Source of the DNA: Trypanosoma brucei
Taxonomy: Eukaryota
Length of the DNA stretch: 64,000 nt
Direction: 5' to 3'
Assembly (NCBI GenBank): GCA_000002445.1
Contig: CP000067.1
Span: forward strand, 32,001-96,000
Of this stretch, positions 6,291 to 50,080 are shown piece after piece; positions within the stretch are counted from its first letter, which is position 1, and every line of letters starts with the position of its first letter. The translations under genes were made by a program, and so were the position numbers. A model generated the notes under the pieces. That model did no database searches and was not told the DNA's origin. It saw only the letters and a program-made list of their open reading frames with translations.

Positions 6291-6330
6291 TTCATACACA
6301 AACACAAACACAAACAAATAAACAACCAAA
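6291..6330. repeat. CA/CAAA-rich microsatellite-like tract (acacaaacacaaacacaaacaaataaacaaccaaac).
   Basis: Read directly from the sequence. Confidence 0.8.
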
Positions 6331-19907: not shown

Positions 19908-22844
19908 AAGGTATTCATGCGCATGGTGAAGGATCTTTACATTAAGAAATAATACAAACAACTATCAGAACTTGCGCATAATCTCACATGAGCCGTCACT
20001 CGGAATGACGTTTCCATTACTTATTAACTTTGCAACAACAATTTTAATACATACTCTCACACTCCTAATCAGTACACAGTGTGCAAATGAAAGTACGAGA
20101 TATCAAAACATATACAATAATAATCGCCGTAAAAAGTAAAACCAATGAAAATAAAATCTTATACATCAAAGAGGAACCTCTCTCACCTGACGAACAAATG
20201 CTGCTCACTTTCTTTATTCTTTAAGTGATCCTGTGTTTTTTTTCTTGCGGCCATGGAACCATGAATACAAAGAACATATGAAGGCATGAAAGGTATTTGT
20301 TTTTGTTTTGGTATTGGAGCACCTTGCCATGCGTCTGATCTTGTGCCTTGGTGAAACTCAAAAGAAACGAAAGGCTCACGGAAGGGAACAAATATATTTG
20401 TGGGAATAACAATCCAATATTAGGCCTCTTTTAAGGAGTGTGCTGAGTGGAATAATGGTGAAAAAGAAGTATTGAAAATGTATGCTATATGGACAAATGC
20501 CTTACAATGTTTTCTCTCTATCTGAAACATATGGAATATATGGAATATATAAGGAACAAGAAACATAGGGAATATATGAAGAATAAGGAAATATATGATA
20601 TATTCTGAAGTGCCGGATGTGCTTGTGCGTGTCTTCGTATGTGTTCTCTGCTTTATATATCACTAAATATTTTACACATTTCATTTTACTTTGCGTATGC
20701 TAATAGCTTGTTTTTCCTTGCATCAATTCATGGAAATATCTATTAGAGAAATAATAATTTACTTTTTCTCTTCCTTTCCCGCTAATGTTTCACCGCCTAT
20801 TTTCATTCCTTATAAATACTGTAAATTTCTTTTGTTACTGTAACTATTTCCAAAAAAAATGTAATGGAGACACTTTAAGCATTACATATCATAATATCTC
20901 TAAACTCCTTCTATGTTATGTTAAGTTACAAATATTTTCATTCCCATTAATTTTATTCAGCAGAACATACAAAACACCCTCAAAAGTCCTTCCTTCCTTT
21001 CTTTTTCTTCAACATCATAATATACCTTGTGGAATATACAAATATATAATAACCATAAATGTGTTATATATCTTCACAACATCAGAAGCTATACAACAGA
21101 ATTGTGTTCCTCAAGAAGCAGTGGTTGTGTTTCCTTTTACTTTCTCTCAGAGTCAAACTAATTAATTAATTACTAATAACATCCTCCAAAGATATTGCTT
21201 CTATTTTCTTGGATCACTCAGCAGCGTAACACCGGAGTATTGAAATAAAGAGTCACAGTTCAAAGAAAATAAAACAGTAAAAAAAATAAACAGAGGCTCG
21301 CACCTTCACAATTGGTTGCATTTGGATATATCAAACGCATTTATACACTTGCATTCCTTGTGTTTCTTTTTTGGGGGAGGGTAAATGCAAAATGCAAAAT
21401 GTATCAAGTTGACGAGTAGAAGAAATACAACACTTGATATAATTTCACTTACATATAAGCTTTCGTTTCCCACTTTATTCTAATTCATAATATTTAGATA
21501 GCAATGTAATGGAGCATTCAGCCATAAACATTTTAACCATAAATATAGTAACTAATGTGTGAATGGTAACCCATGGTGATACATTCCATATGGAACAATA
21601 CCACATTGTTAAATATACGCATGGAATTAAAACTATAGCACTAAATTGAAAATGAAAAATTAGAAGAGAGAAAGATATGAATTATCAAAAGAGGCATATT
21701 CTTCACTAACATGCACTTGTTTCAATACAATCATAATTTCAAATTACTTTAAATGATAAGTGGCCCAATGTCCTGAAACGACACAATAACAATGATTTCA
21801 TTATAACAACTGTAAAATAATGATATGCAATAAAGTAAATAATATAAATAAATAAAAATACAGCAAGCACTGCAGAATATATTTTACTGCTATAACCATT
21901 TGCAAACAAATGAATAGCTTTGCTCATTGGAAGAAAATAATTAAATTCAAACTTCCTATGATTCTGCCAGTGTTGGTGAGCTACGTGTGGGACTCAAAAA
22001 AAACAAAAGTTTATTTTAAATAAATATAAAGAAAAGAAAAACTTCTCATGAAACCATAAGGGTACCCCTGTGAGTTATGTGCTGCTGTAAAACATAGTTA
22101 ACTTCACAACCCTCAAGAAAGAAAGAAATAATAAAAGTAAAATGTAAACAAAAATAAAGTTAAGATATATAATACACTTATGCTTAACTAAATGTAACGT
22201 GTCATACGTAAAGGTGATAAAATAATAATCACAATGTAATGTTATCAATGCTTTCCTTCGCAAACGAAAACTGTCACATCTCAATGTGTTCTTCCAAATT
22301 AATATAAAGGAACCAGCTGTGTTTGTATAATATTCTACAATGTCATTTGGCATTGTCCAATGCTCACTCAAAAAACTCCTTCGTTTTGTTGCGATGTAGC
22401 TGTTGACAGTGTTGTGCTCTTTTTCTTTTTTATTTTTTAACATACAACTATGGGTTTCCGTAATCCTCTCAATATTGCTGCAGTTCCCATCATTAAAAAA
22501 AAAACAAAAGAAATCCATCAAAATAGCGTAACTGGAGTATAAGATGTTGTAGAGAACAATGTATTTATTTTGAGTAATGGAACTCTGTGAGGTCGAAGAC
22601 AATAATCCGAAACGATTGAACCGAAACTTTCATTGCCCCATGCCTGTAAAATAATAATTTAATTGCTCAACGCATATTCTCATCCTGCAGTAAGTAGTTC
22701 AAACAATTTCGTACACACATGAAACACTGGAAGGAAAAGAAAACATATACATTGCATAAACCTTTACTAAATGAAAATACTATTTTTGGTATCGAGTTCA
22801 CCATGTGTTACAGAGCCACATTTCACTAACATGCTAAAGCATAA

Positions 22845-24542
22845 TTAATTCATCATCATATTTCTGATCATCAGCGATAGGGCTTGACATTTGTATGATT
22901 CGACTCCTCCAACATTTCCTTTTACTCTTACAATCTTCACCAACTTGTTCATAACTTCATCGTTCCGCCAGTCAGCCGTGTGTTCAATAATATCATTATA
23001 GCAATATTTATCAGATTTCTTCATAGCTCTCAACGCATCATACACACTTTTCAGATGCCACTCATAACAACCTAAACCAAATATATAACGAGGCAGCGGT
23101 CCAATTAAATTAATGCGTTCCTCCACTATTTTCCACTCATCTTCAATTTCTCTCTTCAATTCGTATCTTCTTCTGTTGGACACCTTTTCTCCTGTATGTA
23201 TTGACAGCTTTTTCCATGCCATAAATGCCTTCATGTCACGCACATCATCGCAGTTCATAATAATTTGGTGGCCTCCCTTATTTGCACTCCACTCATCAAA
23301 ATGGTCACTTTTAGGGAAAGTGAGGAAAGTTACACTCCAAACATCAGAGGGAAGTTGAGTGTATAGTTGCTCCATTGCATACCTTGTGTCCATAACAATG
23401 TGCCCTTTGCTTTCAGATTTCATTTTATTTATGGCAGCAACGGCAGACTCCCAGCGTTCGTATTCATCAACAGTCCCTCTTTCCTCACCCTCTCGGTTGT
23501 ATATCAGGAAGGCAGAATCCTCCAAGAAATATGCAACAACATCAAGCATTCCTTCATTGAAGTGAAGCAGTGAATAAAATAAAAATGATCCAAGGCCACA
23601 TGTTTTACCAATTCCAGACGTGCCAATAATAATATGTATTGGTGGACCCTCAGCTGTTGCTTCCATCCACCATGCTTTCAGACCTCGTTGGATTATATAC
23701 CACACGCGCATAATTTCACGACGGATATATACATGCTTGCAAATTGTCTTGCATCTCTCAGTGTAACCCAATACAAACCTGTTGTATGGCCAACCCTTCT
23801 CCGACGTAAGAACAAAAATCTCCAAACCATTGGATCCTTCCTTTACTCTTGCATCAACATCGGCAGTTTTAGGAGTTATATTCAATTCTGCCTCCGTCCA
23901 TATGCGCTGCGGCCTTCCATCGAATACCTTCATTCCAAGTGGCTCCGCATCATAACCCGACATCACATAACTCCATTTCGCATTGTAAAAAGAATCGTAA
24001 ACATCTCGACAACTTTTGACAGAAACACGCGGCAGAAACCATACTTCTGATTCCGTGACAGCATATTGTACTGCATTCAACCTTCCCCTTGCTACAGGGC
24101 TAATGGAGTTTTTCACCTCTGGAGTTGCACCGTTCACCCAATCGCTGATGGTATAAATTTTTTCCTCTTTAAGGTAGTTTATCCACATTTCTGTTTCAGG
24201 CAGTTTCTCAACAATCCTTTTGTACTCCCTGAACTCATAAAGCCCCTGTATATCCTCAAGAATCTCGGCATCCTTAATATAATCTTCAGGATTCTTAACA
24301 AACGTTTCCATTGACACATTCACTGTGTTATACGTGTTTGAGAAGCATTGATTCAAAAAGTCATGCAGATTCATTTTGGGCAATGTCGCATATTCTTCCA
24401 GCAAAAAATCCCTCACTGTACTGTTCATTTTACAATCAGAAAATCTTTTATATCTCTGCGGCATCTGTGGAGGCTGAGCAGGAGGAGGTGCTACATGTTC
24501 ATCCCGTGGCCTCCTCATGGCTCCTTCAATGTTATTTGGCAC
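22845..24542 (-). CDS. RHS: RHS-like protein, array copy 1. It has the N-terminal RHS domain and P-loop core but lacks the C-terminal RHS domain. The canonical ATG is replaced by ATA, and the first ATG is 8 codons into the track ORF.
   Basis: IIGTSGIGKTCG P-loop. Co-linear with the RHS pseudogene 14048-16410 up to ...YKCQALS, then stop. The track start is GTG; the ATA is at 24592-24594. Confidence 0.65.
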   Translation of the reverse strand: MPNNIEGAMRRPRDEHVAPPPAQPPQMPQRYKRFSDCKMNSTVRDFLLEEYATLPKMNLHDFLNQCFSNTYNTVNVSMETFVKNPEDYIKDAEILEDIQGLYEFREYKRIVEKLPETEMWINYLKEEKIYTISDWVNGATPEVKNSISPVARGRLNAVQYAVTESEVWFLPRVSVKSCRDVYDSFYNAKWSYVMSGYDAEPLGMKVFDGRPQRIWTEAELNITPKTADVDARVKEGSNGLEIFVLTSEKGWPYNRFVLGYTERCKTICKHVYIRREIMRVWYIIQRGLKAWWMEATAEGPPIHIIIGTSGIGKTCGLGSFLFYSLLHFNEGMLDVVAYFLEDSAFLIYNREGEERGTVDEYERWESAVAAINKMKSESKGHIVMDTRYAMEQLYTQLPSDVWSVTFLTFPKSDHFDEWSANKGGHQIIMNCDDVRDMKAFMAWKKLSIHTGEKVSNRRRYELKREIEDEWKIVEERINLIGPLPRYIFGLGCYEWHLKSVYDALRAMKKSDKYCYNDIIEHTADWRNDEVMNKLVKIVRVKGNVGGVESYKCQALSLMIRNMMMN

Positions 24543-24653
24543 TTGTGGGTTTGCGTTATTTCCTTGTGGAGCTGCGGGGCTATTGGCTCTTGATATAACT
24601 ATTTTAACAACCGTTATTAACTTAACTATCTTTTCTTAACTTTACTTTTTTAA

Positions 24654-24710
24654 CTGAAATTATAAATAGCTGAAGTAAAGCAGCCGATGAGGAAAACAAA
24701 AGTGTGTGAA
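24654..24710 (-). promoter_or_regulatory. Putative polypyrimidine tract plus AG trans-splice acceptor region for array copy 1. Equivalent sites exist in the other units.
   Basis: The sense strand reads cacacttttgttttcctcatcggctgctttacttcag, with AG about 110 nt upstream of the coding start. Inferred from sequence context only. Confidence 0.3.
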
Positions 24711-27700
24711 TTGTGTAACATAATATCAAATGTGATAGAGCAAGATAATATTTATTTACCGCTGTTTGCATAATATGATATCATAATGTATTTGATATTA
24801 AGGAAAACAATTTCAAAATATAGTAGCTGTTAATAAATTATTTCCCTTGCTTCATCATTATGTGCCAAATATAATTAATTTCCTGTATCATTCTTTTTAA
24901 ACCATATATAATATGGAAACAAAAAATATTACTGCCTCATACACCTGAATAAACACTTTGTATAGAGTTGACAGTTGTGAAAGGTCAAATTCTATTAATT
25001 AAAATCATTTTTTAAAAATAAACAATAAGCAGAAATATATATGGATATTAATGAAAGGGGAAAAGAATATCGGCACGAGGTATGGATATACACACATTAG
25101 TACAGACACATGAATACACAACTGTTTTCCTGCTATTTCCTCCTTTCTGCCAATACGAGGCATTCAGTTGTATTGAAGGAACTCGTTGAAATATAAATCA
25201 TTTTTCTAACCCATATACTTACCACCGGAATAACGTATTGAATAATCTCTGTATGATATTTATGGAATTGATAATTCTTTTTTCCCCTTTTATAACGTGG
25301 AATGCTGATGCAGCTCTTGGTAGTGTTTCACCAGCAGTCTTCATTGAGATTCCATGCGGTGTCGTAGCATTGTGAGGAGAGTTCTGGGCAGAGGAGACCC
25401 GGGTTCCGCAATGTTGGATTCAGTGTGGGGCCGACATTGGCTCACGATAGGACTCATGAAGGAGCTTGTGAGAGTTCTCTTTTCATGCGCAATCCGAAAG
25501 AGTAGAGGACAATGAATTTATGTCTCCGGTAAAAGAGAGGTTCATCACGTTGTTCACTATATTTGCTTCCGCCTCGTTCATTTAGTGGTTGTTGTGACCC
25601 TTTTTTCTGGGGTGGGGGATTTCTGTCCCTCTTTTCCTCAATGCTACCGCTTTGTCTCGAGTTTTGTGTGTCTGCTTTTGTGCCTTGGTGAAACTCAAAA
25701 GAAACGCTAGCGAAAGGCTCACAGAAGTTAATAAATATATTTGTAGAAATAATCCAATAATGGACCTCTTTTGAGGAATGGTGAGTGAAAAAAATGGTGC
25801 AAAAAAACATTGAAAATTTATGCCACATGGACAAGTGCTTTATAATGTTCCCACTGTGTGGAAATATGGAATATATAAGGAACATATGAGAGGCAGTGAA
25901 TAGTTATAGAACAAACGGAATATATGGAGAACAAGAAACGTAGGGAATATATCAAATGTATGGTATATATGGAATGTATGAGAGGCAAAAAGTATGGAAA
26001 AACTTTGTTAATTGAATATACATTCATGTATTCTCAGGTGCTGGATGTGTTTGTGCGTGTATTTATATGTATGTGTTCTCTGCTTTATATATCACTAAAT
26101 ATTTTACACATTTCATTTTACTTTGCGTATGCTAATAGCTTGTTTTTCCTTGCATCAATTCATGGAAATATCTATTAGAGAAATAATAATTTACTTTTTC
26201 TCTTCCTTTCCCGCTAATGTTTCACCGCCTATTTCCATTCCTTATAAATACTGTAAATTTCTTTTGTTACTGTAACTATTTCCAAAAAAAATGTAAGTAA
26301 GACAGTTTAAGCATTACACATCATAATATCTCCAAACTCCTTCTATGTTATGTTAAGCTACAAATATTTTCATTCCCATTAATTTTATTCAGCAGAACAT
26401 ACAAAACACCCTCAAAAGTCCTTCCTTCCTTTCTTTATTTTTTTTTTTGAAATCATAATATATCTTGTGGAATATACAAATATATAATAACCATAAATGT
26501 GTTATATATCATCAAAACATCAGCAGCTTCACGACATAATTGTGTCCTTCAATAAGCAGTGGTTGTGTTTCCTTTTATTTTATCTCAGAGTCAAACTAAT
26601 TAATTAATTACTAACAGCATCCTCCAAAAATGTTTCTTCTATTTTCTTGGATCACTCAGCAGCGTAACACCGGAGTATTGAAATAAAGAGTCACAGTTCA
26701 AAGAATACAAAACAGTAAAAAAAATAAACAGAGGCTCGCACCTTCACAATTGGTTGCATTTGGATATATCAAACGCATTTATACACTTGCATTCCTTGTG
26801 TTTCTTTTTTGGGGGAGGGTAAATGCAAAATGTATCAAGTTGACGAGTAGAAGAAATACAGCACTTGATATAATTTCACTTACATATAAGCTTTCGTTTC
26901 CCACTTTATTCTAATTCATAATATTTAGATAGCAATGTAATGCAGTATTCAGCAATAAACATTTTAACCATAAATATAGTAACTAATGTGTGAATGGTAG
27001 CCCATGGCGATACATTCCATATGGAACAATACCACATTGTTAAATATATACATCGAATTAAAACTATAGCACTAAATTGAAAATGAAAAATTAGAAGAGA
27101 GAAAGATATGAATTATCAAAAGAGGCATATTCTTCACTAACATGCACTTGTTTCAATACAATCATAATTTCAAATTACTTTAAATGATAAGTGGCCCAAT
27201 GTCCTGAAATGACACAATAACAATGATTTCATTATAGCACCTGTAAAATAATGATATGAAATAAAATAAATAATAAAAATAAATAAAAATACAGCAAGCA
27301 CTGCAGAATATATTTTACTGCTATAACCATTTGCCAACAGATGAATAGCTTTGCTCATTGGAAGAAAATAATTAAATTCAAACTTCCTATGACTATGCCA
27401 GTGTTAATGAGCTACGTGTGGGACTCAAAAAAAAAAACAAAAAGTTTATTTTAAATAAACATGAAGAAAAGAAAAACTTCTCATGAAACCATAAGGGTAT
27501 CCGTGTGAGTTATGTGCTGCTGTCAAACATAGTTAACTTCACAACCCTTAAGAAAGAGAGAAATAATAAAAGTAAAATGTAAACAAAAATAAAGGTAAGA
27601 TATATAATACACTTATGCTTAACTAAATGTAACATGTCATACGTAAAGGTGATAAAATAATAATCACAATGTAATGTTATCAATGCTTTCCTTCGCAAAC

Positions 27701-28276
27701 GAAAACTGTCACATCTCAATGTGTTCTTTCAAATTAATATAAAGGAACCAGCTGTGTTTGTATAATATTCTACAATGTCATTTGGCATTGTCCAATGCTC
27801 ACTCAAAAAACTCCTTCGTTTTGTTGCGATGTAGCTGTTGTCAGTTGTGCTCTTTTTTTATTTTATTTTTTAACATACAACTATGGGTTTCCGTAATCCT
27901 CTCAATATTGCTGCAGTTCCCATCATTAAAAAAAAACAAAAGAAATCCATCAAAATAGCGTAACTGGAGTATAAGATGTTGTAGAGAACAATGTATTTAT
28001 TTTGAGTAATGGAACTCTGTGAGGTCGAAGACAATAATCCTAAACGATTGAACCGAAACTTTCATTGCCCCATGCCTGTAAAATAATAATTTAATTGCTC
28101 AACGCATATTCTCATCCTGCAGTAAGTAGTTCAAACAATTTCGTACACACATGAAACACTGGAAGGAAAAGAAAACATATACATTGCATAAACCTTTACT
28201 AAATGAAAATACTATTTTTGGTATCGAGTTCACCATGTGTTACAGAGCCACATTTCACTAACATGCTAAAGCATAA

Positions 28277-29974
28277 TTAATTCATCATCATATTTCTGAT
28301 CATCAGCGATAGGGCTTGACATTTGTATGATTCGACTCCTCCAACATTTCCTTTTACTCTTACAATCTTCACCAACTTGTTCATAACTTCATCGTTCCGC
28401 CAGTCAGCCGTGTGTTCAATAATATCATTATAGCAATATTTATCAGATTTCTTCATAGCTCTCAACGCATCATACACACTTTTCAGATGCCACTCATAAC
28501 AACCTAAACCAAATATATAACGAGGCAGCGGTCCAATTAAATTAATGCGTCCCTCCACTATTTTCCACTCATCTTCAATTTCTCTCTTCAATTCGTATCT
28601 TCTTCTGTTGGACACCTTTTCTCCTGTATGTATTGACAGCTTTTTCCATGCCATAAATGCCTTCATGTCACGCACATCATCGCAGTTTATAATAATATGG
28701 TGGCCTCCCTTATTTGCACTCCACTCATCAAAATGGGCACTTTTAGGGAAAGTGAGGAAAGTTACACTCCAAACATCAGAGGGAAGTTGAGTGTATAGTT
28801 CCTCCATTGCATACCTTGTGTCCATAACAATGTGCCCTTTGCTTTCAGATTTCATTTTATTTATGGCAGAAACGGCAGACTCCCAGCGTTTGTATTCATC
28901 AACAGTCCCTCTTCCCTCACCCTCTCGGTTGTATATCAGGAAGGCAGCATCCTCCAAGAAATATGCAACAACATCAAGCATTCCTTCATTGAAGTGAAGC
29001 AGTGAATAAAATAAAAATGATCCAAGGCCACATGTTTTACCAATTCCAGACGTGCCAATAATAATATGTATTGGTGGACCCTCAGCTGTTGCTTCCATCC
29101 ACCATGCTTTCAGACCTCGTTGGATTATATACCACACGCGCATAATTTCACGACGGATATATACATGCTTGCAAATTGTCTTGCATCTCTCAGTGTAACC
29201 CAATACAAACCTGTTGTATGGCCAACCCTTCTCCGACGTAAGAACAAAAATCTCCAAACCATTGGATCCTTCCTTTACTCTTGCATCAACATCGGCAGTT
29301 TTAGGAGTTATATTCAATTCTGCCTCCGTCCATATGCGCTGCGGCCTTCCATCGAATACCTTCATTCCAAGTGGCTCCGCATCATAACCCGACATCACAT
29401 AACTCCATTTCGCATTGTAAAAAGAATCGTAAACATCTCGACAACTTTTGACAGAAACACGCGGCAGAAACCATACTTCTGATTCCGTGACAGCATGTTG
29501 TACTGCATTCAACCTTCCCCTTGCTACGGGGCTAATGGAGTTTTTCACCTCTGGAGTTGCACCGTTCACCCAATCGCTGATGGTAAAAATTTTTTCCTCT
29601 TTTAGGTAGTTTATCCACATTTCTGTTTCAGGCAGTTTCTCAACAATCCTTTTGTACTCCCTGAACTCATAAAGCCCCTGTATATCCTCAAGAATCTCGG
29701 CATCCTTAATATAATCTTCAGGATTCTTAACAAACGTTTCCATTGACACATTCACTGTGTTATACGTGTTTGAGAAGCATTGATTCAAAAAGTCATGCAG
29801 ATTCATTTTGGGCAATGTCGCATATCTTTCCAGCAAAAAATCCCTCACTGTACTGTTCATTTTCCAATCAGAAAATCTTTTATATCTCTGCGGCATCTGT
29901 GGAGGCTGAGCAGGAGGAGGTGCTACATGTTCATCCCGTGGCCTCCTCATGGGCCCTTCAATGTTATTTGGCAC
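28277..29974 (-). CDS. RHS: RHS-like protein, array copy 2 (C-terminal domain absent, ATA at the canonical start position).
   Basis: About 98% identical to copies 3 and 4. The ATA is at 30026-30028. Confidence 0.65.
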   Translation of the reverse strand: MPNNIEGPMRRPRDEHVAPPPAQPPQMPQRYKRFSDWKMNSTVRDFLLERYATLPKMNLHDFLNQCFSNTYNTVNVSMETFVKNPEDYIKDAEILEDIQGLYEFREYKRIVEKLPETEMWINYLKEEKIFTISDWVNGATPEVKNSISPVARGRLNAVQHAVTESEVWFLPRVSVKSCRDVYDSFYNAKWSYVMSGYDAEPLGMKVFDGRPQRIWTEAELNITPKTADVDARVKEGSNGLEIFVLTSEKGWPYNRFVLGYTERCKTICKHVYIRREIMRVWYIIQRGLKAWWMEATAEGPPIHIIIGTSGIGKTCGLGSFLFYSLLHFNEGMLDVVAYFLEDAAFLIYNREGEGRGTVDEYKRWESAVSAINKMKSESKGHIVMDTRYAMEELYTQLPSDVWSVTFLTFPKSAHFDEWSANKGGHHIIINCDDVRDMKAFMAWKKLSIHTGEKVSNRRRYELKREIEDEWKIVEGRINLIGPLPRYIFGLGCYEWHLKSVYDALRAMKKSDKYCYNDIIEHTADWRNDEVMNKLVKIVRVKGNVGGVESYKCQALSLMIRNMMMN

Positions 29975-32900: not shown

Positions 32901-33710
32901 AAAAGAAAAACTTCTCATGAAACCATAAGGGTACCCCTGTGAGTTATGTGCTGCTGTAAAACATAGTTAACTTCACAACCCTTAAGAAAGAGAGAAATAA
33001 TAAAAGTAAAATGTAAACAAAAATAAAGGTAAGATATATAATACACTTATGCTTAACTAAATGTAACATGTCATACGTAAAGGTGATAAAATAATAATCA
33101 CAATGTAATGTTATCAATGCTTTCCTTCACAAACAAAAACTGTCACATCTCAATGTGTTCTTCCAAATTAATATAAAGGAACCAGCTGTGTTTGTATAAT
33201 ATTCTACAATGTCATTTGGCATTGTCCAATGCTCACTCAAAAAACTCCTTCGTTTTGTTGCGATGTAGCTGTTTTCAGTTGTGCTCTTTTTTTATTTTAT
33301 TTTTTAACATACAACTATGGGTTTCCGTAATCCTCTCAATATTGCTGCAGTTCCCATCATTAAAAAAAAACAAAAGAAATCCATCAAAATAGCGTAACTG
33401 GAGTATAAGATGTTGTAGAGAACAATGTATTTATTTTGAGTAATGGAACTCTGTGAGGTCGAAGACAATAATCCGAAACGATTGAACCGAAACTTTCATT
33501 GCCCCATGCCTGTAAAATAATAATTTAATTGCTCAACGCATATTCTCATCCTGCAGTAAGTAGTTCAAACAATTTCGTACACACATGAAACACTGGAAGG
33601 AAAAGAAAACATATACATTGCATAAACCTTTACTAAATGAAAATACTATTTTTGGTATCGAGTTCACCAAGTGTTGCAGAGCCACATTTCACTAACATGC
33701 TAAAGCATAA

Positions 33711-38400: not shown

Positions 38401-39145
38401 AACTTCACAACCCTTAAGAAAGAGAGAAATAATAAAAGTAAAATGTAAACAAAAATAAAGGTAAGATATATAATACACTTATGCTTAACTAAATGTAACA
38501 TGTCATACGTAAAGGTGATAAAATAATAATCACAATGTAATGTTATCAATGCTTTCCTTCGCAAACGAAAACTGTCACATCTCAATGTGTTCTTTCAAAT
38601 TAATATAAAGGAACCAGCTGTGTTTGTATAATATTCTACAATGTCATTTGGTGTTGTCCAATGCTCACTCAAAAAACTCCTTCGTTTTGTTGCGATGTAG
38701 CTGTTGACAGTGTTGTGCTCTTTTTCTTTTTTATTTTTTAACATACAACTATGGGTTTCCGTAATCCTCTCAATATTGTTGCAGTTCCCATCATTAAAAA
38801 AAAAACAAAAGAAATCCATCAAAATAGCGTAACTGGAGTATAAGATGTTGTAGAGCACAATGTATTTATTTTGAGTAATGGAACTCTGTGAGGTCGAAGA
38901 CAATAATCCTAAACGATTGAACCGAAACTTTCATTGCCCCATGCCTGTAAAATAATAATTTAATTGCTCAACGCATATTCTCATCCTGCAGTAAGTAGTT
39001 CAAACAATTTCGTACACACATGAAACACTGGAAGGAAAAGAAAACATATACATTGCATAAACCTTTACTAAATGAAAATACTATTTTTGGTATCGAGTTC
39101 ACCAAGTGTTGCAGAGCCACATTTCACTAACATGCTAAAGCATAA

Positions 39146-40843
39146 TTAATTCATCATCATATTTCTGATCATCAGTGATAGGGCTTGACATTTGTATGAT
39201 TCGACTCCTCCAACATTTCCTTTTACTCTTACAATCTTCACCAACTTGTTCATAACTTCATCGTTCCGCCAGTCAGCCGTGTGTTCAATAATATCATTAT
39301 AGCAATATTTATCAGATTTCTTCATAGCTCTCAACGCATCATACACACTTTTCAGATGCCACTCATAACAACCTAAACCAAATATATAACGAGGCAGCGG
39401 TCCAATTAAATTAATGCGTCCCTCCACTATTTTCCACTCATCTTCAATTTCTCTCTTCAATTCGTATCTTCTTCTGTTGGACACCTTTTCTCCTGTATGT
39501 ATTGACAGCTTTTTCCATGCCATAAATGCCTTCATGTCACGCACATCATCGCAGTTTATAATAATATGGTGGCCTCCCTTATTTGCACTCCACTCATCAA
39601 AATGGGCACTTTTAGGGAAAGTGAGGAAAGTTACACTCCAAACATCAGAGGGAAGTTGAGTGTATAGTTCCTCCATTGCATACCTTGTGTCCATAACAAT
39701 GTGCCCTTTGCTTTCAGATTTCATTTTATTTATGGCAGCAACGGCAGACTCCCAGCGTTTGTATTCATCAACAGTCCCTCTTCCCTCACCCTCTCGGTTG
39801 TATATCAGGAAGGCAGCATCCTCCAAGAAATATGCAACAACATCAAGCATTCCTTCATTGAAGTGAAGCAGTGAATAAAATAAAAATGATCCAAGGCCAC
39901 ATGTTTTACCAATTCCAGACGTGCCAATAATAATATGTATTGGTGGACCCTCAGCTGTTGCTTCCATCCACCATGCTTTCAGACCTCGTTGGATTATATA
40001 CCACACGCGCATAATTTCACGACGGATATATACATGCTTGCAAATTGTCTTGCATCTCTCAGTGTAACCCAATACAAACCTGTTGTATGGCCAACCCTTC
40101 TCCGACGTAAGAACAAAAATCTCCAAACCATTGGATCCTTCCTTTACTCTTGCATCAACATCGGCAGTTTTAGGAGTTATATTCAATTCTGCCTCCGTCC
40201 ATATGCGCTGCGGCCTTCCATCGAATACCTTCATTCCAAGTGGCTCCGCATCATAACCCGACATCACATAACTCCATTTCGCATTGTAAAAAGAATCGTA
40301 AACATCTCGACAACTTTTGACAGAAACACGCGGCAGAAACCATACTTCTGATTCCGTGACAGCATGTTGTACTGCATTCAACCTTCCCCTTGCTACGGGG
40401 CTAATGGAGTTTTTCACCTCTGGAGTTGCACCGTTCACCCAATCGCTGATGGTAAAAATTTTTTCCTCTTTAAGGTAGTTTATCCACATTTCTGTTTCAG
40501 GCAGTTTCTCAACAATCCTTTTGTACTCCCTGAACTCATAAAGCCCCTGTATATCCTCAAGAATCTCGGCATCCTTAATATAATCTTCAGGATTCTTAAC
40601 AAACGTTTCCATTGACACATTCACTGTGTTATACGTGTTTGAGAAGCATTGATTCAAAAAGTCATGCAGATTCATTTTGGGCAATGTCGCATATTCTTCC
40701 AGCAAAAAATCCCTCACTGTACTGTTCATTTTCCAATCAGAAAATCTTTTATATCTCTGCGGCATCTGTGGAGGCTGAGCAGGAGGAGGTGCTACATGTT
40801 CATCCCGTGGCCTCCTCATGGGCCCTTCAATGTTATTTGGCAC
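39146..40843 (-). CDS. RHS: RHS-like protein, array copy 4 (C-terminal domain absent, GTA at the canonical start position).
   Basis: Near-identical to copies 2 and 3. Confidence 0.65.
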   Translation of the reverse strand: MPNNIEGPMRRPRDEHVAPPPAQPPQMPQRYKRFSDWKMNSTVRDFLLEEYATLPKMNLHDFLNQCFSNTYNTVNVSMETFVKNPEDYIKDAEILEDIQGLYEFREYKRIVEKLPETEMWINYLKEEKIFTISDWVNGATPEVKNSISPVARGRLNAVQHAVTESEVWFLPRVSVKSCRDVYDSFYNAKWSYVMSGYDAEPLGMKVFDGRPQRIWTEAELNITPKTADVDARVKEGSNGLEIFVLTSEKGWPYNRFVLGYTERCKTICKHVYIRREIMRVWYIIQRGLKAWWMEATAEGPPIHIIIGTSGIGKTCGLGSFLFYSLLHFNEGMLDVVAYFLEDAAFLIYNREGEGRGTVDEYKRWESAVAAINKMKSESKGHIVMDTRYAMEELYTQLPSDVWSVTFLTFPKSAHFDEWSANKGGHHIIINCDDVRDMKAFMAWKKLSIHTGEKVSNRRRYELKREIEDEWKIVEGRINLIGPLPRYIFGLGCYEWHLKSVYDALRAMKKSDKYCYNDIIEHTADWRNDEVMNKLVKIVRVKGNVGGVESYKCQALSLMIRNMMMN

Positions 40844-43800
40844 TTGTGGGTTTGCGTTATTTCCTTGTGGAGCTGCGTGGCTATTGGCTCTTGATACAAC
40901 TATTTTAACAACCGTTATTAACTTAACTATCTTTTCTTAACTTTACTTTTTTAACTGAAATTATAAATAGCTGAAGTAAAGCAGCCGATGAGGAAAACAA
41001 AAGTGTGTGAATTGTGTAACATAATATCAAAAGTAATATAGCAAGATAATATTTATTTACCGCTGTTTGCATAATATGATATCATAATGTATTTGATATT
41101 AAGGAAAACAATTTCAAAATATAGTAGCTGTTAATAAATATTTCCCTTACTTCATTATCATGTGCCAAATATAATTAATTTCATGTATCATTTCTTTTTA
41201 AACAACGAATAATATGGAAACAAAAAATATTACTGCCTCATACACCTGAATAAACACTTTGTATAGAGTTGACAGTTATGAAAGGTCAAATTCTATTAAT
41301 TAAAATCATTTTTTAAAAATAAACAATAAGCAGAAATATATATGGATATTAATGAAAGGGGAAAAGAATATCGGCACGAGGTATGGATATACACACATTA
41401 GTACAGACACATGAATACACAACTGTTTTCCTGCTATTTCCTCCTTTCTGCCAATACGGGGCATTCAGTTGTATTGAAGGAACTCGTTGAAATATAAATC
41501 ATTTTTCTAACCCATATACTTACCACCGGAATAACGTATTGAATAATCTCTGTAGAATATTTATGGAATTGATTATTCTTTTTTCCCCTTTTATAACGTG
41601 GAATGCTGATGCAGCTCTTGGTAGTGTTTCACCAGCAGTCTTCATTGAGATTCCATGCGGTGTCGTAGCATTGTGAGGAGAGTTCTGGGCAGAGGAGACC
41701 CGGGTTCCTCAATGTTGGATTCAGTGTGGGGCCGACATTGGCTCACGATAGGACTCATGAAGGAGCTTGTGAGAGTTCTCTTTTCATGCGCAATCCGAAA
41801 GAGTAGAGGACAATGAATTTATGTCTCCGGTAAAAGAGAGGTTCATCACGTTGCTCACTATATTTGCTTCCGCCTCGCTCATTTAGTGGTTGTTGTGACC
41901 CTTTTTTCTGGGGTGGGGGATTTCTGTCCCTCTTTTCCTCAATGCTACCGCTTTGTCTCGAGTTTTGTGTGTCTGCTTTTGTGCCTTGGTGAAACTCAAA
42001 AGAAACGCTAGCGAAAGGCTCACAGAAGTTAATAAATATATTTGTAGAAATAATCCAATAATGGACCTCTTTTGAGGAATGGTGAGTGAAAAAAATGGTG
42101 CAAAAAAACATTGAAAATTTATGCCACATGGACAAGTGCTTTATAATGTTCCCACTGTGTGGAAATATGGAATATATAAGGAACATATGAGAGGCAGTGA
42201 ATATTTATAGAACAAACGGAATATATGGAGAACAAGAAACGTAGGGAATATATCAAATGTATGGTATATATGGAATGTATGAGAGGCAAAAAGTATGGAA
42301 AAACTTTGTTAATTGAATATACATTCATGTATTCTCAGGTGCTGGATGTGTTTGTGCGTGTATTTATATGTATGTGTTCTCTGCTTTATATATCACTAAA
42401 TATTTTACACATTTCATTTTACTTTGCGTATGCTAATAGCTTGTTTTTCCTTGCATCAATTCATGGAAATATCTATTAGAGAAATAATAATTTACTTTTT
42501 CTCTTCCTTTCCCGCTAATGTTTCACCGCCTATTTTCATTCCTTATAAATACTGTAAATTTCTTTTGTTACTGTAACTATTTCCAAAAAAAATGTAAGGG
42601 AGACACTTTAAGGATTACATATCATAATATCTCTAAACTCCTTCTATGTTATGTTAAGTTACTAATATTTTTATTTCCCATTCATTTTATTCAGCAGAAC
42701 ATACAAAACACCCTCAAAAGTCCTTCCTTCCTTTCTTTATTTTTTTTTGAAATCATAATATATCTTGTGGAATATACAAATATATAATAACCATAAATGT
42801 GTTATATATCATCAAAACATCAGAAGCTTCACGACATAATTGTGTCCTTCAATAAGCAGTGGCTGTGTTTTCTTTTATTTTATCTCAGAGTCAAACTAAT
42901 TAATTAATTACTAACAGCATCCTCCAAAGATGTTTCTTCTATTTTCTTGGATCACTCAGCAGCGTAACACCGGAGTATTGAAATAAAGAGTCACAGTTCA
43001 AAGAAAATAAAACAGTAAAAAAAATAAACAGAGGCTCGCACCTTCACAATTGGTTGCATTTGGATATATCAAACGCATTTATACACTTGCATTCCTTGTG
43101 TTTCTTTTTTGGGGGGGAGGGTAAATGCAAAATGTATCAAGTTGACGAGTAGAAGAAATACACCACATGATATAATTTCACTTACATACAAGCTTTCTTT
43201 TCCCACTTTATTCTAATTCATAATATTTAGATAGCAATGTAATGGAGCATTCAGCCATAAACATTTTAACCATAAATATAGTAACTAATGTGTGAATGGT
43301 AACCCATTGCGATACATTCCATATGGAACAATACCACATTGTTAAATATACGCATGGAATTAAAACTATAGCACTAAATTGAAAATGAAAAATTAGAAGA
43401 GAGAAAGTTATGAATTATCAAGAGAGGCATATTCTTCACTAACATGCACTTGTTTCAATACAATCATAATTTAAAATTAAGTTAAATGATAAGTGGCCCA
43501 ATATCCTGAAACGACACAATAACAATGATTTCATTATAACAACTGTAAAATAATGATATGAAATAAAATAAATAATAAAAATAAATAAAAATACAGCAAG
43601 CACTGCAGAATATATTCTACTGCTATAACCATTTGCCAACAGATGAATAGCTTTGCTCATTGGAAGAAAATAATTAAATTCAAACTTCCTATGATTCTGC
43701 CAGTGTTTGTCGGCTACATGTGGGACTCAAAAAAAACAAAAGTTTATTTTAAATAAACATGAAGAAAAGAAAAACTTCGCATGAAACCATAAGGGTATCC

Positions 43801-44575
43801 GTGTGAGTTATGTGCTGCTGTCAAACATAGTTAACTTCACAACCCTCAAGAAAGAGAGAAATAATAAAAGTAAAATGTAAACAAAAATAAAGTTAAGATA
43901 TATAATACACTTATGCTTAACTAAATGTAACATGTCATACGTAAAGGTGATAAAATAATAATCACAATGTAATGTTATCAATGCTTTCCTTCACAAACGA
44001 AAACTGTCACATCTCAATGTGTTCTTTCAAATTAATATAAAGGAACCAGCTGTGTTTGTATAATATTCTACAATGTCATTTGGTGTTGTCCAATGCTCAC
44101 TCAAAAAACTCCTTCGTTTTGTTGCGATGTAGCTGTTGTCAGTTGTGCTCTTTTTTTATTTTATTTTTTAACATACAACTATGGGTTTCCGTAATCCTCT
44201 CAATATTGCTGCAGTTCCCATCATTAAAAAAAAACAAAAGAAATCCATCAAAATAGCGTAACTGGAGTATAAGATGTTGTAGAGCACAATGTATTTATTT
44301 TGAGTAATGGAACTCTGTGAGGTCGAAGACAATAATCCTAAACGATTGAACCGAAACTTTCATTGCCCCATGCCTGTAAAATAATAATTTAATTGCTCAA
44401 CGCATATTCTCATCCTGCAGTAAGTAGTTCAAACAATTTCGTACACACATGAAACACTCGAAGGAAAAGAAAACATATACATTGCATAAACCTTTACTAA
44501 ATGAAAATACTATTTTTTGGTATCGAGTTCACCATGTGTTACAGAGCCACATTTCACTAACATGCTAAAGCATAA

Positions 44576-46294
44576 TTAATTCATCATCATATTTCTGATC
44601 ATCAGCGATAGGGCTTGACATTTGTATGATTCGACTCCTCCAACATTTCCTTTTACTCTTACAATCTTCACCAACTTGTTCATAACTTCATCGTTCCGCC
44701 AGTCAGCCGTGTGTTCAATAATATCATTATAGCAATATTTATCAGATTTCTTCATAGCTCTCAACGCATCATACACTCTTTTCAGATGCCACTCATAACA
44801 ACCTAAACCAAATATATAACGAGGCAGCGGTCCAATTAAATTAATGCGTCCCTCCACTATTTTCCACTCATCTTCAATTTCTCTCTTCAATTCGTATCTT
44901 CTTCTGTTGGACACCTTTTCTCCTGTATGTATTGACAGCTTTTTCCATGCCATAAATGCCTTCATGTCACGCACATCATCGCAGTTCATAATAATTTGGT
45001 GGCCTCCCTTATTTGCACTCCACTCATCAAAATGGGCACTTTTAGGGAAAGTGAGGAAAGTTACACTCCAAACATCAGAGGGAAGTTGAGTGTATAGTTT
45101 CTCCATTGCATACCTTGTGTCCATAATAATGTGTCCTCTGTTTTCAAATTTCATTTTATTTATGGCAGCAACGGCAGACTCCCAGCGTTCGTATTCATCA
45201 ACAGTCCCTCTTTCCTCACCCTCTCGGTTGTATATCAGGAAGGCAGCATCCTCCAAGAAATATGCAACAACATCAAGCATTCCTTCATTGAAGTGAAGCA
45301 GTGAATAAAATAAAAATGATCCAAGGCCACATGTTTTACCAATTCCAGACGTGCCAATAATAATATGTATTGGTGGACCCTCAGCTGTTGCTTCCATCCA
45401 CCATGCTTTCAGACCTCGTTGGATTATATACCACACGCGCATAATTTCACGACGGATATATACATGCTTGCAAATTGTCTTGCATCTCTCAGTGTAACCC
45501 AATACAAACCTGTTGTATGGCCAACCCTTCTCCGACGTAAGAACAAAAATCTCCAAACCATTGGATCCTTCCTTTACTCTTGCATCAAAATCGGCAGTTT
45601 TAGGAGTTATATTCAATTCTGCCTCCGTCCATATGCGCTGCGGCCTTCCATCGAATACCTTCATTCCAAGTGGCTCCGCATCATAACCCGACATCACATA
45701 ACTCCATTTCGCATTGTAAAAAGAATCGTAAACATCTCGACAACTTTTGACAGAAACACGCGGCAGAAACCATACTTCTGATTCCGTGACAGCATGTTGT
45801 ACTGCATTCAACCTTCCCCTTGCTACGGGGCTAATGGAGTTTTTCACTTCTGGAGTTGCACCGTTCACCCAATCGCTGATGGTAAAAATTTTTTCCTCAG
45901 AGAGATAAATATCTGCCCTCAGTAATTGAAACTCATCCGTATCCTGTATATCCTCAAGAATCTCGGCATCCTTAATATAATCTTCAGGATTCTTAACAAA
46001 CGTTTCCATTGACACATTCACTGTGTTATACGTGTTTGAGAAGCATTGATTCAAAAAGTCATGCAGATTCATTTTGGGCAATGTCGCATATTCTTCCAGC
46101 AAAAAATCCCTCACTGTACTGTTCATTTTCCAATCAGAAAATCTTTTATATCTCTGCGGCATCTGTGGAGGCTGAGCAGGAGGAGGTGCTACATTTTCAT
46201 CCCGTGGCCTCCTCATGGGCCCTTCAATGTTATTTGGCACTTGTGGGTTTGCGTTATTTCCTTGTGGAGCTGCGGGGCTATTGGCTCTTGACAT
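44576..46294 (-). CDS. RHS: RHS-like protein, array copy 5, 572 aa. It is the first copy in transcription order. It keeps a true ATG, has an 18-aa N-terminal extension relative to the other copies, and carries a short mosaic segment.
   Basis: ATG at 46292-46294 (MSRANSPAAPQGNNANPQVPNNIEG...). The internal segment DTDEFQLLRADIYLSEE replaces GLYEFREYKRIVEKLPETEMWINYLKEE found in the other copies. Confidence 0.7.
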   Translation of the reverse strand: MSRANSPAAPQGNNANPQVPNNIEGPMRRPRDENVAPPPAQPPQMPQRYKRFSDWKMNSTVRDFLLEEYATLPKMNLHDFLNQCFSNTYNTVNVSMETFVKNPEDYIKDAEILEDIQDTDEFQLLRADIYLSEEKIFTISDWVNGATPEVKNSISPVARGRLNAVQHAVTESEVWFLPRVSVKSCRDVYDSFYNAKWSYVMSGYDAEPLGMKVFDGRPQRIWTEAELNITPKTADFDARVKEGSNGLEIFVLTSEKGWPYNRFVLGYTERCKTICKHVYIRREIMRVWYIIQRGLKAWWMEATAEGPPIHIIIGTSGIGKTCGLGSFLFYSLLHFNEGMLDVVAYFLEDAAFLIYNREGEERGTVDEYERWESAVAAINKMKFENRGHIIMDTRYAMEKLYTQLPSDVWSVTFLTFPKSAHFDEWSANKGGHQIIMNCDDVRDMKAFMAWKKLSIHTGEKVSNRRRYELKREIEDEWKIVEGRINLIGPLPRYIFGLGCYEWHLKRVYDALRAMKKSDKYCYNDIIEHTADWRNDEVMNKLVKIVRVKGNVGGVESYKCQALSLMIRNMMMN

Positions 46295-48501
46295 GTCTCT
46301 TATTATAACAATAATAATAATTATTATTAACTTAACTTAACTTCTATTACTTTCCTGATAATAAAAATAACTAACTAACGTAATGCATATTGTTGCGGTG
46401 GTTGATAAAGAATAGGAGGAGGTGGTAAAATAGAAAAGTAAAAGGGGATGAATAGCACTCACGTACGCAACACCGGTTATGTTGTGTCTCCCTCTTCGTC
46501 CTCTCAATTCAAGTTAGCAAAACAGAAACACGCACAAACACACACACATATATATATGTGAAACCTTACATTCAAATATAAGAAATTATAATATGGAATG
46601 TTATGCATCATTAGTTGTCACTACTTATTGCATAAAATAATAGAAAAATTAATTGCATCACGTGTATGTTTCTTTAGTGCCTCCTCTAAGAGGGAAAACT
46701 AAAGTGGTAACATTTGTCTGTTTAGTTTGTGTAAACTTCATATAAACTAACATACGGAAATAAAAAAATTAATAATAGACAGCTAATTAAGAAACGCGTC
46801 ATCGCATCACATTCCTTTAATAACTAACGAGAGAAAAAAAAATAGTAGGGTTTTCACAATAATGGATGTTAAAAGATTATGTGTAACAAAATTAAATGAT
46901 ACCCTATTTACTTTTTCGATAATATTCACTGGTAATATAAATCATACAATTTCAAGCACTGAAGGCAAAAGGTCCACAGGCTACATATTCATCATGTCAC
47001 ATGTGTCCGTATACCCTGTTAAACAACTTTCGTTCACTCACTCAATCATAGTCAATGCTTCATAAACAAAGTACGTCTTTTATTATGATCTGAAGGGAAA
47101 CTTATTATTATTATTTTTATTAAATTGTCTCGTTCACAATTCATATCCATTTCCCTCCATTCCACAACTTATACATGGACGTTTTTGAGAATGCTACCTG
47201 GAGTGCAGTGTGCAATTTATTAACAGTGAAAACAAAAAAAAAACATTTAGAAACTAGCGGTTCTCACTGCGGAAGAGCAACTGCAACAACAACAAAACAT
47301 CTTCCGCCTTTGGGTTTTGACAAATCAAAAGTGTATATTAGGACTGAATTAATAAAATACCTCATATTCCCTTTGTATGTTCTCATTTGGTTGTCATTTA
47401 AACTACGGGTTCCGTTGTAGCATATACATCGCTGAATTTTAAAATATATATATTTCGCTTCAACAAATAGTAACAACTATCGTGCTGGAAGGGACAATAA
47501 GTTAATGTATTTTTTTTTTGTTTTCCACATTCGTGGTACAGTGTTTGACCTCATCTCCTCTCTTCCTCGTGGAGCTGAGTTCACCAGATGCCGTGGCATT
47601 CACAATATTTTGTACGCACGAACTTTACCTGAAAATAATAAAGGAATGAAAATGATAATTCGCCGCTTCAAGATAATGCGAGTGCAGACACGACAAAAAC
47701 TACCGCTGCGCCTCAAAAAGGCACATCACGGCGTGGAGCCTTTAATGCAGTTTCTGTCAAATTTATCGTTAACGTTATTTCTTTCTTTCCATGGGGGTGG
47801 CGTGGCGATGCCGGATGTCGCTATCGTATGCATCATGGGGCAGCAGCTGCTGAGGGAGATAGAGAGGAAAAAAACGTATTTTTTTTTGTTCATTGCATTG
47901 AGCTTTACTGCCATTCGCTGACGATCCATTTCGATCATTCCAAATCGTGTGTTGCAGTAAATCTTAAGCGATTATAATAATATCGCATCCACGGTATGTT
48001 TTACACTGAAAAGAATAAACCACACCTGCGCTTAACATGCTCGCGGCTCCCTCCCCTCCATCATCCATGTTTACTACATTGTATTTCAACTGCAAACTAA
48101 TTGCCTAACTACTGAAGTGTTTGAGCAATGCGCCACCACACAAAAACAGAAAAGTGCTATGGAGGCGCTTGCATTTTAGTTGGACACAAATTGTCTCACT
48201 TTCAAATTCTGCAAGCGCACACACACGCAGATACACATAAAACATACGTATTCTTTCCAACACTTTTTGGAGGCACCTAAAGAAAAGTTATGATACAAAG
48301 GAATTACCGGGTCACATGAAAGAGTGCATAAATTGAAGTGCAAACAATGTTTCAACAGTAGAAATCGATACTTTTTTTTTTGCTGCTATCGTTAAAGGTG
48401 AAGTCGAACAAGATAACGACACGCAACCCATCGTGATACTGCGGCCCTTTGTTATTATTTATTATGTACCGGTGTCCTTACGTTGACAAGAGAAAGCGTT
48501 T

Positions 48502-48880: not shown

Positions 48881-50080
48881 TTAGGCGTCCAAAACAATGT
48901 GCTCTTGTGCTAGCCCGTCAGTATCGATGGCTTCACAGTGCCGGATGGCATACAAAATCCGGTCACGCATAACATCAATTGAACTGTAGGCGGGTATACG
49001 GAGTGTAAAGAAACAAGTATTACTGGTTGGAAGGGAGTCACGGGTCCCTCCCCTTTTAACTTTGATGTTTTCCTTGAGCGGCAGCCTTGTTTGTCCCGTT
49101 GTAAAGCGGAGAAGCAGCATCCGGTCTTTATCACACATAGTTTCAATAACTTCGTCAAACATTTGTGAATCGTTTGAGGGGAGAGAGACCTCACAAACGT
49201 CACGCAGTGCTTGACAAGATAACTTAGGCGTCCCACAAATGATCAACTCCACTTGCTGCCAGCGGAAGGCATTGAGTGTGTACAAGGGGATTACTTGACC
49301 GAACCCATGCCGAATATGGCTGATCACCACATCATACTTGTGAACTTCGATGGAGGCAATATGTTCTGCGAGTATTCCCGCAGTACGAAGATCCACAGGC
49401 GGCAATTCCTCCCGCATTCTAAGGTGAGAATTTTCACTACAGAATCTCAACCAACTCTCCTGTAGGCCTGGAAATCTCTCCTCCAGCTCCTCAGCCGTCC
49501 GCTCTGCTAACGCCTCCGGTGTTAATTGCCTCATTATGTCACGATCCATGGCCCTCAGGTCACGCAGTGATGTTTCCTCGCTAAGTAAGAGTTTCCAAAA
49601 CAGTGGTGGAAACTCCACGGCGAGGAGATCTTTGGTAATAAAACACGCTGCGAGAAACTTCCCGAAAAACTCGAACATGGGAAACAGCTGAAATTCAAGA
49701 GCCATTGTTGCATTTGGCATCACGGCCAACTGCCCATCACAACCGCAGTCCTTAAAGAGGGGATTCTGTTGGAATTTCCCGCTTGGGTGTGTTGACATAA
49801 TCTCTGTCGCAAGCTGTGATAGAATATCGCGGTAAGGTCCCCCCACGTCCGTAGATCCAAAACCGGCAAGCTTTACGGTGAACATGGGCGAGACATAGAA
49901 GATAGAAATCGGACTTCGCTGAAGCTGCGCGAACAACTGTCCGAACACGGAACGCATTAGCGTTGGGTAAAAACCGTAGCGCACAGAGGCCCGGGCGTGC
50001 ATTGTATGAATGGTAACTTTCCCTTTGTGCCCCGTGCGATTTCTGAAAGGCCGCATTGTCTCATTTTGGATTTTTTTTGA
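48881..50080 (-). other. HECT catalytic domain (N- and C-lobes) of the giant ligase.
   Basis: Motifs as listed for the parent gene. Confidence 0.8.

Follow-up and report, generated by a model that had tools for sequence, protein, structure and literature searches.

An annotated tandem array of five short RHS3-type genes on chromosome 4 of Trypanosoma brucei

The array and its genes

RHS (retrotransposon hot spot) proteins are abundant, trypanosome-specific factors, three subfamilies of which have been linked to transcription by RNA polymerase II and to the export of mRNA. A trait of the family is the insertion site for retroelements (RIME/ingi) in the 5' part of the gene, and the C-terminal region of the proteins is the basis on which the subfamilies RHS1 to RHS7 are split. 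Here we analyze five RHS genes that lie in tandem within a stretch of 64,000 nucleotides of Trypanosoma brucei DNA (contig CP000067.1, positions 32,001 to 96,000; hereafter the window, numbered from its first letter). A first-pass annotation had described them as C-terminally truncated genes on a repeat of 5.43 kb, and had left open whether they are functional or form a propagated pseudogene. The array is an already annotated RHS3-type locus of a reference genome, largely ordinary rather than new, and its genes are likely short by nature.

Direct repeats, a BLASTN search of the window with the repeat unit, and five open reading frames (ORFs) on the minus strand all bear out the tandem arrangement. 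By BLASTN the array occupies positions 20341-46343 of the minus strand, limits that differ slightly from the 20346-46360 first given, and comprises ~4.8 head-to-tail units of 5430-5435 bp, with direct-repeat spacings of 5432, 5434, 5435 and 5430 bp. Four units are complete (22845-28276, 28277-33710, 33711-39145 and 39146-44575; 97.3-97.9% identity to unit 2 by BLASTN) and are flanked on both sides by incomplete ones (20341-22844 and 44576-46343). Transcription runs from right to left, away from a HECT ligase gene and toward a subtelomeric RHS cluster. The genes and the distal edge are listed below, with ORF lengths counted from the ATG.

20341-20598, minus strand: distal edge of the array; the downstream flank of copy 1 is ~79% identical to the interior spacers, and homology ends beyond it
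22845-24518, minus strand: copy 1, 557 aa, last copy in the direction of transcription; XP_844176, most likely Tb927.4.260
28277-29950, minus strand: copy 2, 557 aa; identical to XP_844177
33711-35384, minus strand: copy 3, 557 aa; identical to XP_844178; input of the structure model
39146-40819, minus strand: copy 4, 557 aa; identical to XP_844179
44576-46294, minus strand: copy 5, 572 aa, first copy in the direction of transcription; XP_844180, most likely Tb927.4.300

All five ORFs are intact and uninterrupted, and they share the end point that had been claimed for them, each closing with NMMMN and a stop codon (...ALSLMIRNMMMN). The stretch EGRGTVDEYKRW is specific to the interior copies, and QALSLMIRNMMMN is a C-terminal stretch of the array proteins.

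The five products are residue-for-residue identical to XP_844176-XP_844180 from chromosome 4 of T. brucei brucei TREU927. A published gene annotation file (GTF) places Tb927.4.260,.270,.280,.290 and.300 in a row on the minus strand of chromosome 4, at intervals of ~5.4 kb between 54.7 and 80.0 kb, with Tb927.4.310 next after Tb927.4.300. With an offset of 32,000, each coding sequence of the array falls inside its published transcript. The accessions thus most likely correspond to Tb927.4.260-.300, a correspondence that is indirect but tight. TriTrypDB gives these genes the product name "RHS3, putative" and lists them as protein-coding (names reproduced in the supplements of PMC8483307 and in Table 3 of PMC7952579). 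The array sits where the subtelomeric RHS cluster meets the core of chromosome 4. Its paralogues are 95-98% identical to one another vs at most 66% to homologues elsewhere. A literature search returned no published analysis of this chromosome 4 array itself.

Domain organization and structure model

In Pfam, the array protein consists of DUF7578, RHS_N and RHSP. RHS_N (PF20445) is matched with E = 1.8e-31 over profile positions 1-119 of 127, and the RHSP P-loop (PF07999) with E = 6.8e-55 over positions 1-248 of 312 only. Walker A (GTSGIGKT) and Walker B (HIVMD) both stand in family-invariant columns. A bacterial Rhs (rearrangement hot spot) toxin was considered and ruled out, the Pfam domains being those of trypanosome RHS.

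An AlphaFold2 model of copy 3, built from 32 homologues (mean predicted local distance difference test, pLDDT, 74.5), shows an alpha/beta P-loop core at about residues 294-420 followed by a helical lid, which is the fold of AAA+/STAND-like P-loop NTPases; proteins of the AAA+/STAND/ORC-Cdc6/TnsC-like type rank among the nearest known systems. Directly after the lid, a pair of short helices leads to a beta-hairpin (KLVKIVRV / ESYKCQAL) and a last helix, with which the model ends; from the order of its secondary structure, we read this terminal element as winged-helix-like. Among long relatives, P0007 (837 aa) is the closest; in its model (pLDDT 66.5), the equivalent hairpin is followed by a long helix and then by an alpha/beta domain that bears invariant D...QxT and WExIY motifs. 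Because this long relative continues past the same hairpin into a separate domain, the short RHS proteins look, on the models, as though they end at a domain boundary.

The C-terminal domain of the long proteins returned only the RHSP tail or noise from Pfam at E-values up to 10. A nine-sequence profile of it searched against PDB sequences yielded only a spurious 27-residue match to ASF1 (E = 0.05), and Foldseek with the full-length P0007 model found AAA+ ATPases only. Since none of these searches gave a nuclease match, the reading of this domain as a restriction endonuclease has its basis in the literature and in the conserved D...QxT motif, and the fold is not confirmed. In the Crinkler-RHS architecture, an NTPase is combined with a helix-turn-helix and a restriction-endonuclease-like domain (PMC5289972, summarizing Zhang et al., 2016). 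The array proteins differ from such NTPase-nuclease effectors in that they terminate before the position of the nuclease-like domain.

A short C-terminus shared with the RHS3 subfamily

The ends of the five genes had been called premature, which is true by comparison with long RHS proteins but not within their own subfamily. The C-terminal domain is indeed missing from ORFs and spacers alike, as first noticed: TBLASTN with 29 full-length RHS proteins found no remnant of it in any frame of positions 19500-48800 (best E-value 1.5), and the strong high-scoring segment pairs halt at the equivalent of the array's stop codon. The same stop is found in the RHS3 reference Q8WPQ6 (P0002, 576 aa), which ends ...ALSLMTRNMMMS, and in three dispersed T. 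brucei RHS3-type proteins (P0003, P0004 and P0006; 579-590 aa), which end ...ALS[LV]MIRNMMM[NS]. The last residue of the array proteins falls in the same alignment column as that of these four proteins (column 717 of alignment A1), and array and RHS3-type proteins have in common the C-terminal peptide ALSLM[IT]RNMMM[NS] and the short end that marks RHS3, a subfamily reportedly first defined by Bringaud and coworkers in 2002.

RHS3-type proteins are also the closest relatives of the array proteins, with 58-66% identity to P0002-P0006. Pairs among these five are 60-85% identical (82-85% mutually for P0003-P0005, 60-73% for the other pairs). Over their N-terminal 170 residues, the array proteins are 43-48% identical to other RHS3-type proteins, 29% to P0006, and 29-48% to other RHS proteins. 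The array genes resemble the rest of the subfamily in domain order (DUF7578, RHS_N, P-loop), length class (557-590 aa), stop and C-terminal peptide; they differ from it in being tandem rather than dispersed, in their identity of only 58-66%, and in the internal start codon of four copies. Because the same stop occurs in RHS3 proteins that are only 58-66% identical to the array copies, the short form appears to be older than the array, and would have survived substantial divergence with open frames.

Whether RHS proteins devoid of the C-terminal domain exist elsewhere had been raised as a check, and they do in RHS3 and, as predicted gene models, in other species of Trypanosoma. Our survey of the short form, which combined a search of 1.84 billion representative proteins with name look-ups and alignment, and which deals with automated gene models, retrieved short RHS models that stop 4-30 residues from the RHS3 stop. 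Four of 558 aa come from two assemblies of T. vivax and four of 579-580 aa from T. cruzi; T. conorhini has the short form too. Within the T. vivax group and within the T. cruzi group, length does not vary from one strain or assembly to another. The short models of these three species (P0075, P0195, P0060, P0191, P0077 and P0111; 558-591 aa) end just past the same predicted beta-hairpin (A4).

Anatomy of the repeat unit

Outside the genes, the unit consists of AT-rich spacer sequence in which the following features were located.

29951-33710, minus strand: representative spacer, 3.76 kb, 24-35% G+C, with one richer block of 200 nt (0.51) at 30785-30984
25707-25720, minus strand: candidate trans-splice acceptor of copy 1 (...GAGCCTTTCGCTAG, with the splice directly after it), lying 1188 nt ahead of the ATG and following a pyrimidine-rich stretch
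31142-31155, minus strand: identical candidate acceptor of copy 2, from the sequence motif
36572-36585, minus strand: identical candidate acceptor of copy 3, from the sequence motif
42008-42021, minus strand: identical candidate acceptor of copy 4, from the sequence motif

No spacer ORF is conserved from one unit to another, and Pfam gave no match for the two longest. Rfam at gathering thresholds and a tRNA search gave no matches in the window, and Tandem Repeats Finder reported only short AT-rich, microsatellite-like repeats in the spacers. Variability within the unit peaks in the first 2.2 kb past the stop codon (58-64 variable sites per kb), and the last ~1.2 kb of the spacer are probably the 5' untranslated region (UTR) of the next copy. 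Given a window start of 32001, the candidate acceptor at copy 1 coincides with the 5' end of the StringTie transcript of Tb927.4.260 (57706). We regard the GAGCCTTTCGCTAG sites, of which each of copies 1-4 has a single one upstream, as candidate trans-splice acceptors; copy 5 has no such site upstream.

A stretch of ~1.1-1.2 kb occurs only between copies (24519-25706, 29951-31141, 35385-36571 and 40820-42007), being absent from both outer flanks of the array, beyond copy 5 on the upstream side and beyond copy 1 on the downstream side, an arrangement that would not be expected from simple tandem duplication. Over its last ~190 nt, this stretch shares 85% identity with the sequence that precedes a dispersed RHS3-type gene of T. 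b. equiperdum (5' flank; locus L002, positions 7762-7949). Because of this match, the interior spacers appear to preserve an ancestral 5' flank that the first copy has lost. The coding sequence and these ~190 nt are all that L002 has in common with the array, and this locus is broken ~90 nt before the array's stop.

Divergence and exchange among copies

The earlier description of homogenized interior copies and diverged edge copies holds for the coding sequences but not for the spacers. Within the coding sequence, copies 2-4 differ at ~7 sites, with 1-4 private sites each, vs ~9-15 private sites in copy 1 and ~30 in copy 5. Copies 1 and 5 share four coding states against the interior copies, and the substitutions first given as examples of edge divergence, EERG/EGRG and HQIIM/HHIII, belong to exactly this class. 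Differences in the spacers amount to 1-10% for every unit, and private variants are as numerous in interior unit 3 (21) as in edge unit 1 (22). The partitions of spacer sites are mutually incompatible. Units 4 and 3 share 15 sites in one stretch of 500 columns, units 3 and 1 share 12 in another, and units 5 and 4, 4 and 2, 3 and 2, and 5 and 1 are likewise linked. With shared variants linking the units in every possible pair, the spacers form a recombinant mosaic. Unequal crossing-over had been proposed as the driver of concerted evolution; the coding pattern, in which the edge copies escape homogenization, is as expected from it, or from gene conversion.

Copy 5 also carries an in-frame replaced segment.

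45898-45943, minus strand: replaced segment in copy 5, with 33 nt fewer than its counterpart elsewhere in the array (DTDEFQLLRADI-YLSEEK instead of GLYEFREYKRIVEKLPETEMWINYLKEEK)

The version in copy 5 resembles the RHS3 reference and the neighboring pseudogene, and the interior version resembles another RHS3 protein. Because the two versions resemble different RHS genes, the segment suggests exchange with RHS genes outside the array. In the very closely related T. b. equiperdum (CM010675.1, locus L001, positions 1-14803), the HECT gene is followed by at least 2.7 units with the same 5.43 kb period, the record beginning inside the array; here the copy-5-type segment is found in the second copy, vs the first transcribed copy in TREU927. 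The first copy of T. b. equiperdum has three single-base gaps relative to TREU927, possibly long-read errors, and is called at 447 aa only.

With its head-to-tail units of constant period and exchange between units, the locus has the hallmarks of a tandem array. Its mode of evolution is one already documented for T. brucei tandem arrays: head-to-tail units, mosaics and diverged edges are common to it and to those described by Jackson (2007), with no difference in kind. Its oddity relative to those arrays is that ~1.1-1.2 kb of each inter-gene spacer is present at neither outer flank. The RHS7 array on chromosome 7 (Tb927.7.1980-2040; Tb55), the coding sequences and UTRs of which are phylogenetically discordant (Jackson, 2007; PMC1855330), offers a close likeness, as it consists of tandem RHS genes of the same genome, with discordance between coding sequence and UTR and with transcripts that rise in salivary glands. 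The proteins that are probably those of RHS7 on chromosome 7 (688-690 aa; this assignment is not confirmed) differ in keeping the C-terminal domain and lacking DUF7578, and are ~46% identical to the array proteins.

Constraint and expression

None of the five coding sequences carries a frameshifting indel, and their sole coding indel is in frame. The spacers undergo 5.8-10.4 indel events per kb, and 25 of 31 events are not multiples of three. At these rates, the chance of observing no indel in 1674 nt lies between 6e-5 and 3e-8. Among units 1-4, the coding sequence has 11.4 variable sites per kb vs 58 in the first 2.2 kb of the spacer. Of the residues that are invariant or near-invariant across 29 RHS proteins from outside the array, 30-32 of the 33 invariant and 29 of the 31 near-invariant ones are preserved in the array proteins, whose changes at conserved residues are mostly conservative (e.g., GKS to GKT in Walker A).

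Expression, which had been proposed as a check, was found for four of the five genes, whose transcripts go up in salivary-gland forms. In reads per million (RPM), values from proventriculus to salivary gland rise from 3.7 to 26.6 for.270, from 0 to 23.3 for.280, from 3.65 to 26.2 for.290, and from 3.7 to 39.5 for.300, with adjusted p-values of 2e-4 to 8e-3 (S5 Table of PMC8483307). RHS expression values are made uncertain by multi-mapping among RHS genes. Tb927.1.70 (RHS4), Tb927.4.250 (RHS5) and Tb927.4.240 rise too in the same comparison. Table 3 of a study of RBP6-induced development names Tb927.4.300, RHS7 and GCS1 among the transcripts that no knock-down affected (PMC7952579); from the surrounding text, we take these to be the transcripts with a normal rise.

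Naturally short genes or relics

The likely explanation of the locus is an annotated array of five naturally short RHS3-type genes that grew by tandem duplication and evolve in concert. The protein would comprise an N-terminal DUF7578, RHS_N, a P-loop NTPase with intact Walker A and B, a lid and a winged-helix-like element, without the C-terminal domain of the long subfamilies. In an ancestral RHS gene that predates the array, unrelated AT-rich sequence would have taken the place of the 3' part, giving the form common to dispersed RHS3 genes. A unit of 5.43 kb, made up of a presumed ~1.2 kb 5' UTR, the coding sequence and ~2.5 kb of 3' UTR and intergenic sequence, may then have been duplicated in tandem. 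Unequal crossing-over and gene conversion would subsequently have kept the interior coding sequences near-identical, left the two edge copies behind and turned the spacers into mosaics. The genome of T. brucei has no gene-specific promoters, and the copies may serve to increase the dosage of a transcript whose level stays low through most of the life cycle and goes up in the salivary-gland forms of the tsetse fly. Like other RHS proteins, but devoid of the C-terminal module, the encoded protein most likely acts in the nucleus.

Several observations nevertheless weigh against this explanation. Among copies, pN/pS is ~1, with typically 10-15 nonsynonymous and 1-3 synonymous differences between edge and interior (e.g., 12:3), so that recent divergence looks unconstrained or neutral. 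That no stop codon arose in the 49 variable columns of the coding sequence would be only slightly surprising under neutrality (P = 0.08), and the lower coding diversity could stem from conversion tracts instead of selection. Copy 5 retains the ancestral RHS3-type start MSRANSPAAPQGNNANPQ (46241-46294). Copies 1-4 keep codons for SRANSPAAPQGNNANPQVPNNIEGP upstream of their annotated start (24519-24600, 29951-30030, 35385-35470 and 40820-40900), but a 12-nt gap relative to copy 5 deletes the ancestral ATG and the annotated start lies 26 codons inward; the full RHS3-type N-terminus can thus be predicted from copy 5 only. Transcript levels are low, and even salivary glands reach no more than ~40 RPM. 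The proteomic check was negative, as none of the five UniProt accessions of the array appears in the one salivary-gland proteome supplement that was searched. Finally, a nuclear role most likely applies but is extrapolated from other RHS subfamilies (PMC6393297).

The alternative that fares best, although we hold it doubtful, is that the array represents a distinct, unnamed short-RHS subfamily mislabelled RHS3, with a role of its own in the salivary gland, for instance in modulating complexes of full-length RHS proteins through an NTPase module that lacks the C-terminal domain. The array proteins are 58-66% identical to all RHS3-type proteins, whereas P0003-P0005 are 82-85% identical to one another, and the low identity of their N-terminal 170 residues to other RHS proteins (29-48%) also speaks for a separate standing. 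So does a salivary-gland rise like that of RHS7, given that the authors of the expression data call the other RHS subfamilies broadly expressed. The rise of RHS4 (Tb927.1.70), RHS5 (Tb927.4.250) and Tb927.4.240, however, means that the pattern is not unique to the array, and the expression values carry the multi-mapping uncertainty given above. A more far-reaching version seems more speculative still: the array would be a separate salivary-gland-stage lineage of short NTPase plus winged-helix proteins that partner or antagonize full-length RHS in a stage-specific way, in transcription by RNA polymerase II while the parasite develops in the tsetse fly. Retention of similar forms would then be a repeated event, seen in T. 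brucei, T. vivax and T. cruzi.

It is also unlikely, to a degree between these two proposals, that the array is a propagated pseudogene, that is, a truncated, non-functional RHS gene amplified passively by unequal crossing-over, its frames being open through youth and repeated homogenization. The pN/pS of ~1, the loss of the ancestral start codon in four copies, the low transcript levels in most stages and the lack of peptides in the one salivary-gland supplement would all fit such a history, and pseudogenes are held to account for 78 of the 118 RHS genes in the annotation (PMC6393297). Against it, the same short form is found in dispersed genes that are 34-42% divergent at the protein level and have intact frames of ~576-590 aa. 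Nearly all family-invariant residues are retained, including Walker A and B; there is no frameshift in 5 x 1.67 kb vs the 31 spacer indels, 25 of them not multiples of three; four copies are up-regulated in a stage-specific manner; and the truncation falls at a modelled domain boundary. The question first posed, functional gene or propagated pseudogene, is therefore answered in part: the shared RHS3 stop, the annotation, the kept frames and the regulated transcripts tell against the premature, pseudogene framing, and the pseudogene keeps some support from pN/pS and from the missing peptides. On balance, the five copies are probably maintained, expressed genes.

That the number of copies is an artefact of assembly expansion or collapse is very unlikely, since, although 5.4 kb units of 97-98% identity are of a size at which assemblies can err and the T. 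b. equiperdum record stops inside the array after ~2.7 units and so yields no copy number, no two units are identical (6-30 private variants each, plus unit-specific indels), both edges are unique, and this independent long-contig assembly of another subspecies has the array with its HECT neighbor and 5.43 kb period.

Read as five naturally short RHS3-type genes, the locus yields a mainly negative outcome, with an annotated position, a normal RHS3 end and a known pattern of concerted evolution. Two small points may be of interest to specialists: four of the five copies rise in salivary-gland forms alongside RHS7, and RHS proteins without the C-terminal domain recur, ending at the same modelled boundary, in three or four species of Trypanosoma. 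The latter recurrence suggests that the NTPase module has a role of its own. To our knowledge, short RHS3-type genes have been ignored owing to the repetitive nature of the family.

Neighboring features

The array is bordered by a core gene on one side and by RHS paralogues on the other.

48881-63979, minus strand: giant SPRY plus HECT ubiquitin ligase ORF, most likely Tb927.4.310, from Pfam and the order of genes in the GTF
14048-16337, minus strand: frameshifted near-full-length RHS paralogue with a C-terminal domain, from ORFs and Pfam

The SPRY plus HECT ORF, open over 5032 codons and reaching the edge of the window, is the first core, non-RHS gene beside the array, and it keeps this place in T. 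b. equiperdum. The frameshifted paralogue had served as the co-linear comparator of the first-pass annotation and is real; at the matching position, TriTrypDB lists 'RHS4, degenerate' (Tb927.4.240).

Another long RHS pseudogene lies at 7136-10102 on the minus strand, broken into at least four ORFs (7136-7987, 8113-8553, 8711-9331 and 9611-10102). At the N-terminus (MNQQVPIEGRGDIEGRRRE...) it hardly differs from the short RHS3-type protein P0006, yet the C-terminal domain is kept. Between the two RHS relics, short ORFs at 11935-12267 and 12462-12728, both on the minus strand, match domain 6 (E = 5e-11) and domain 4 (E = 1e-12), respectively, of RNA polymerase Rpb2, and look like a degenerate fragment of an RNA polymerase second-largest subunit among the subtelomeric RHS genes and pseudogenes.

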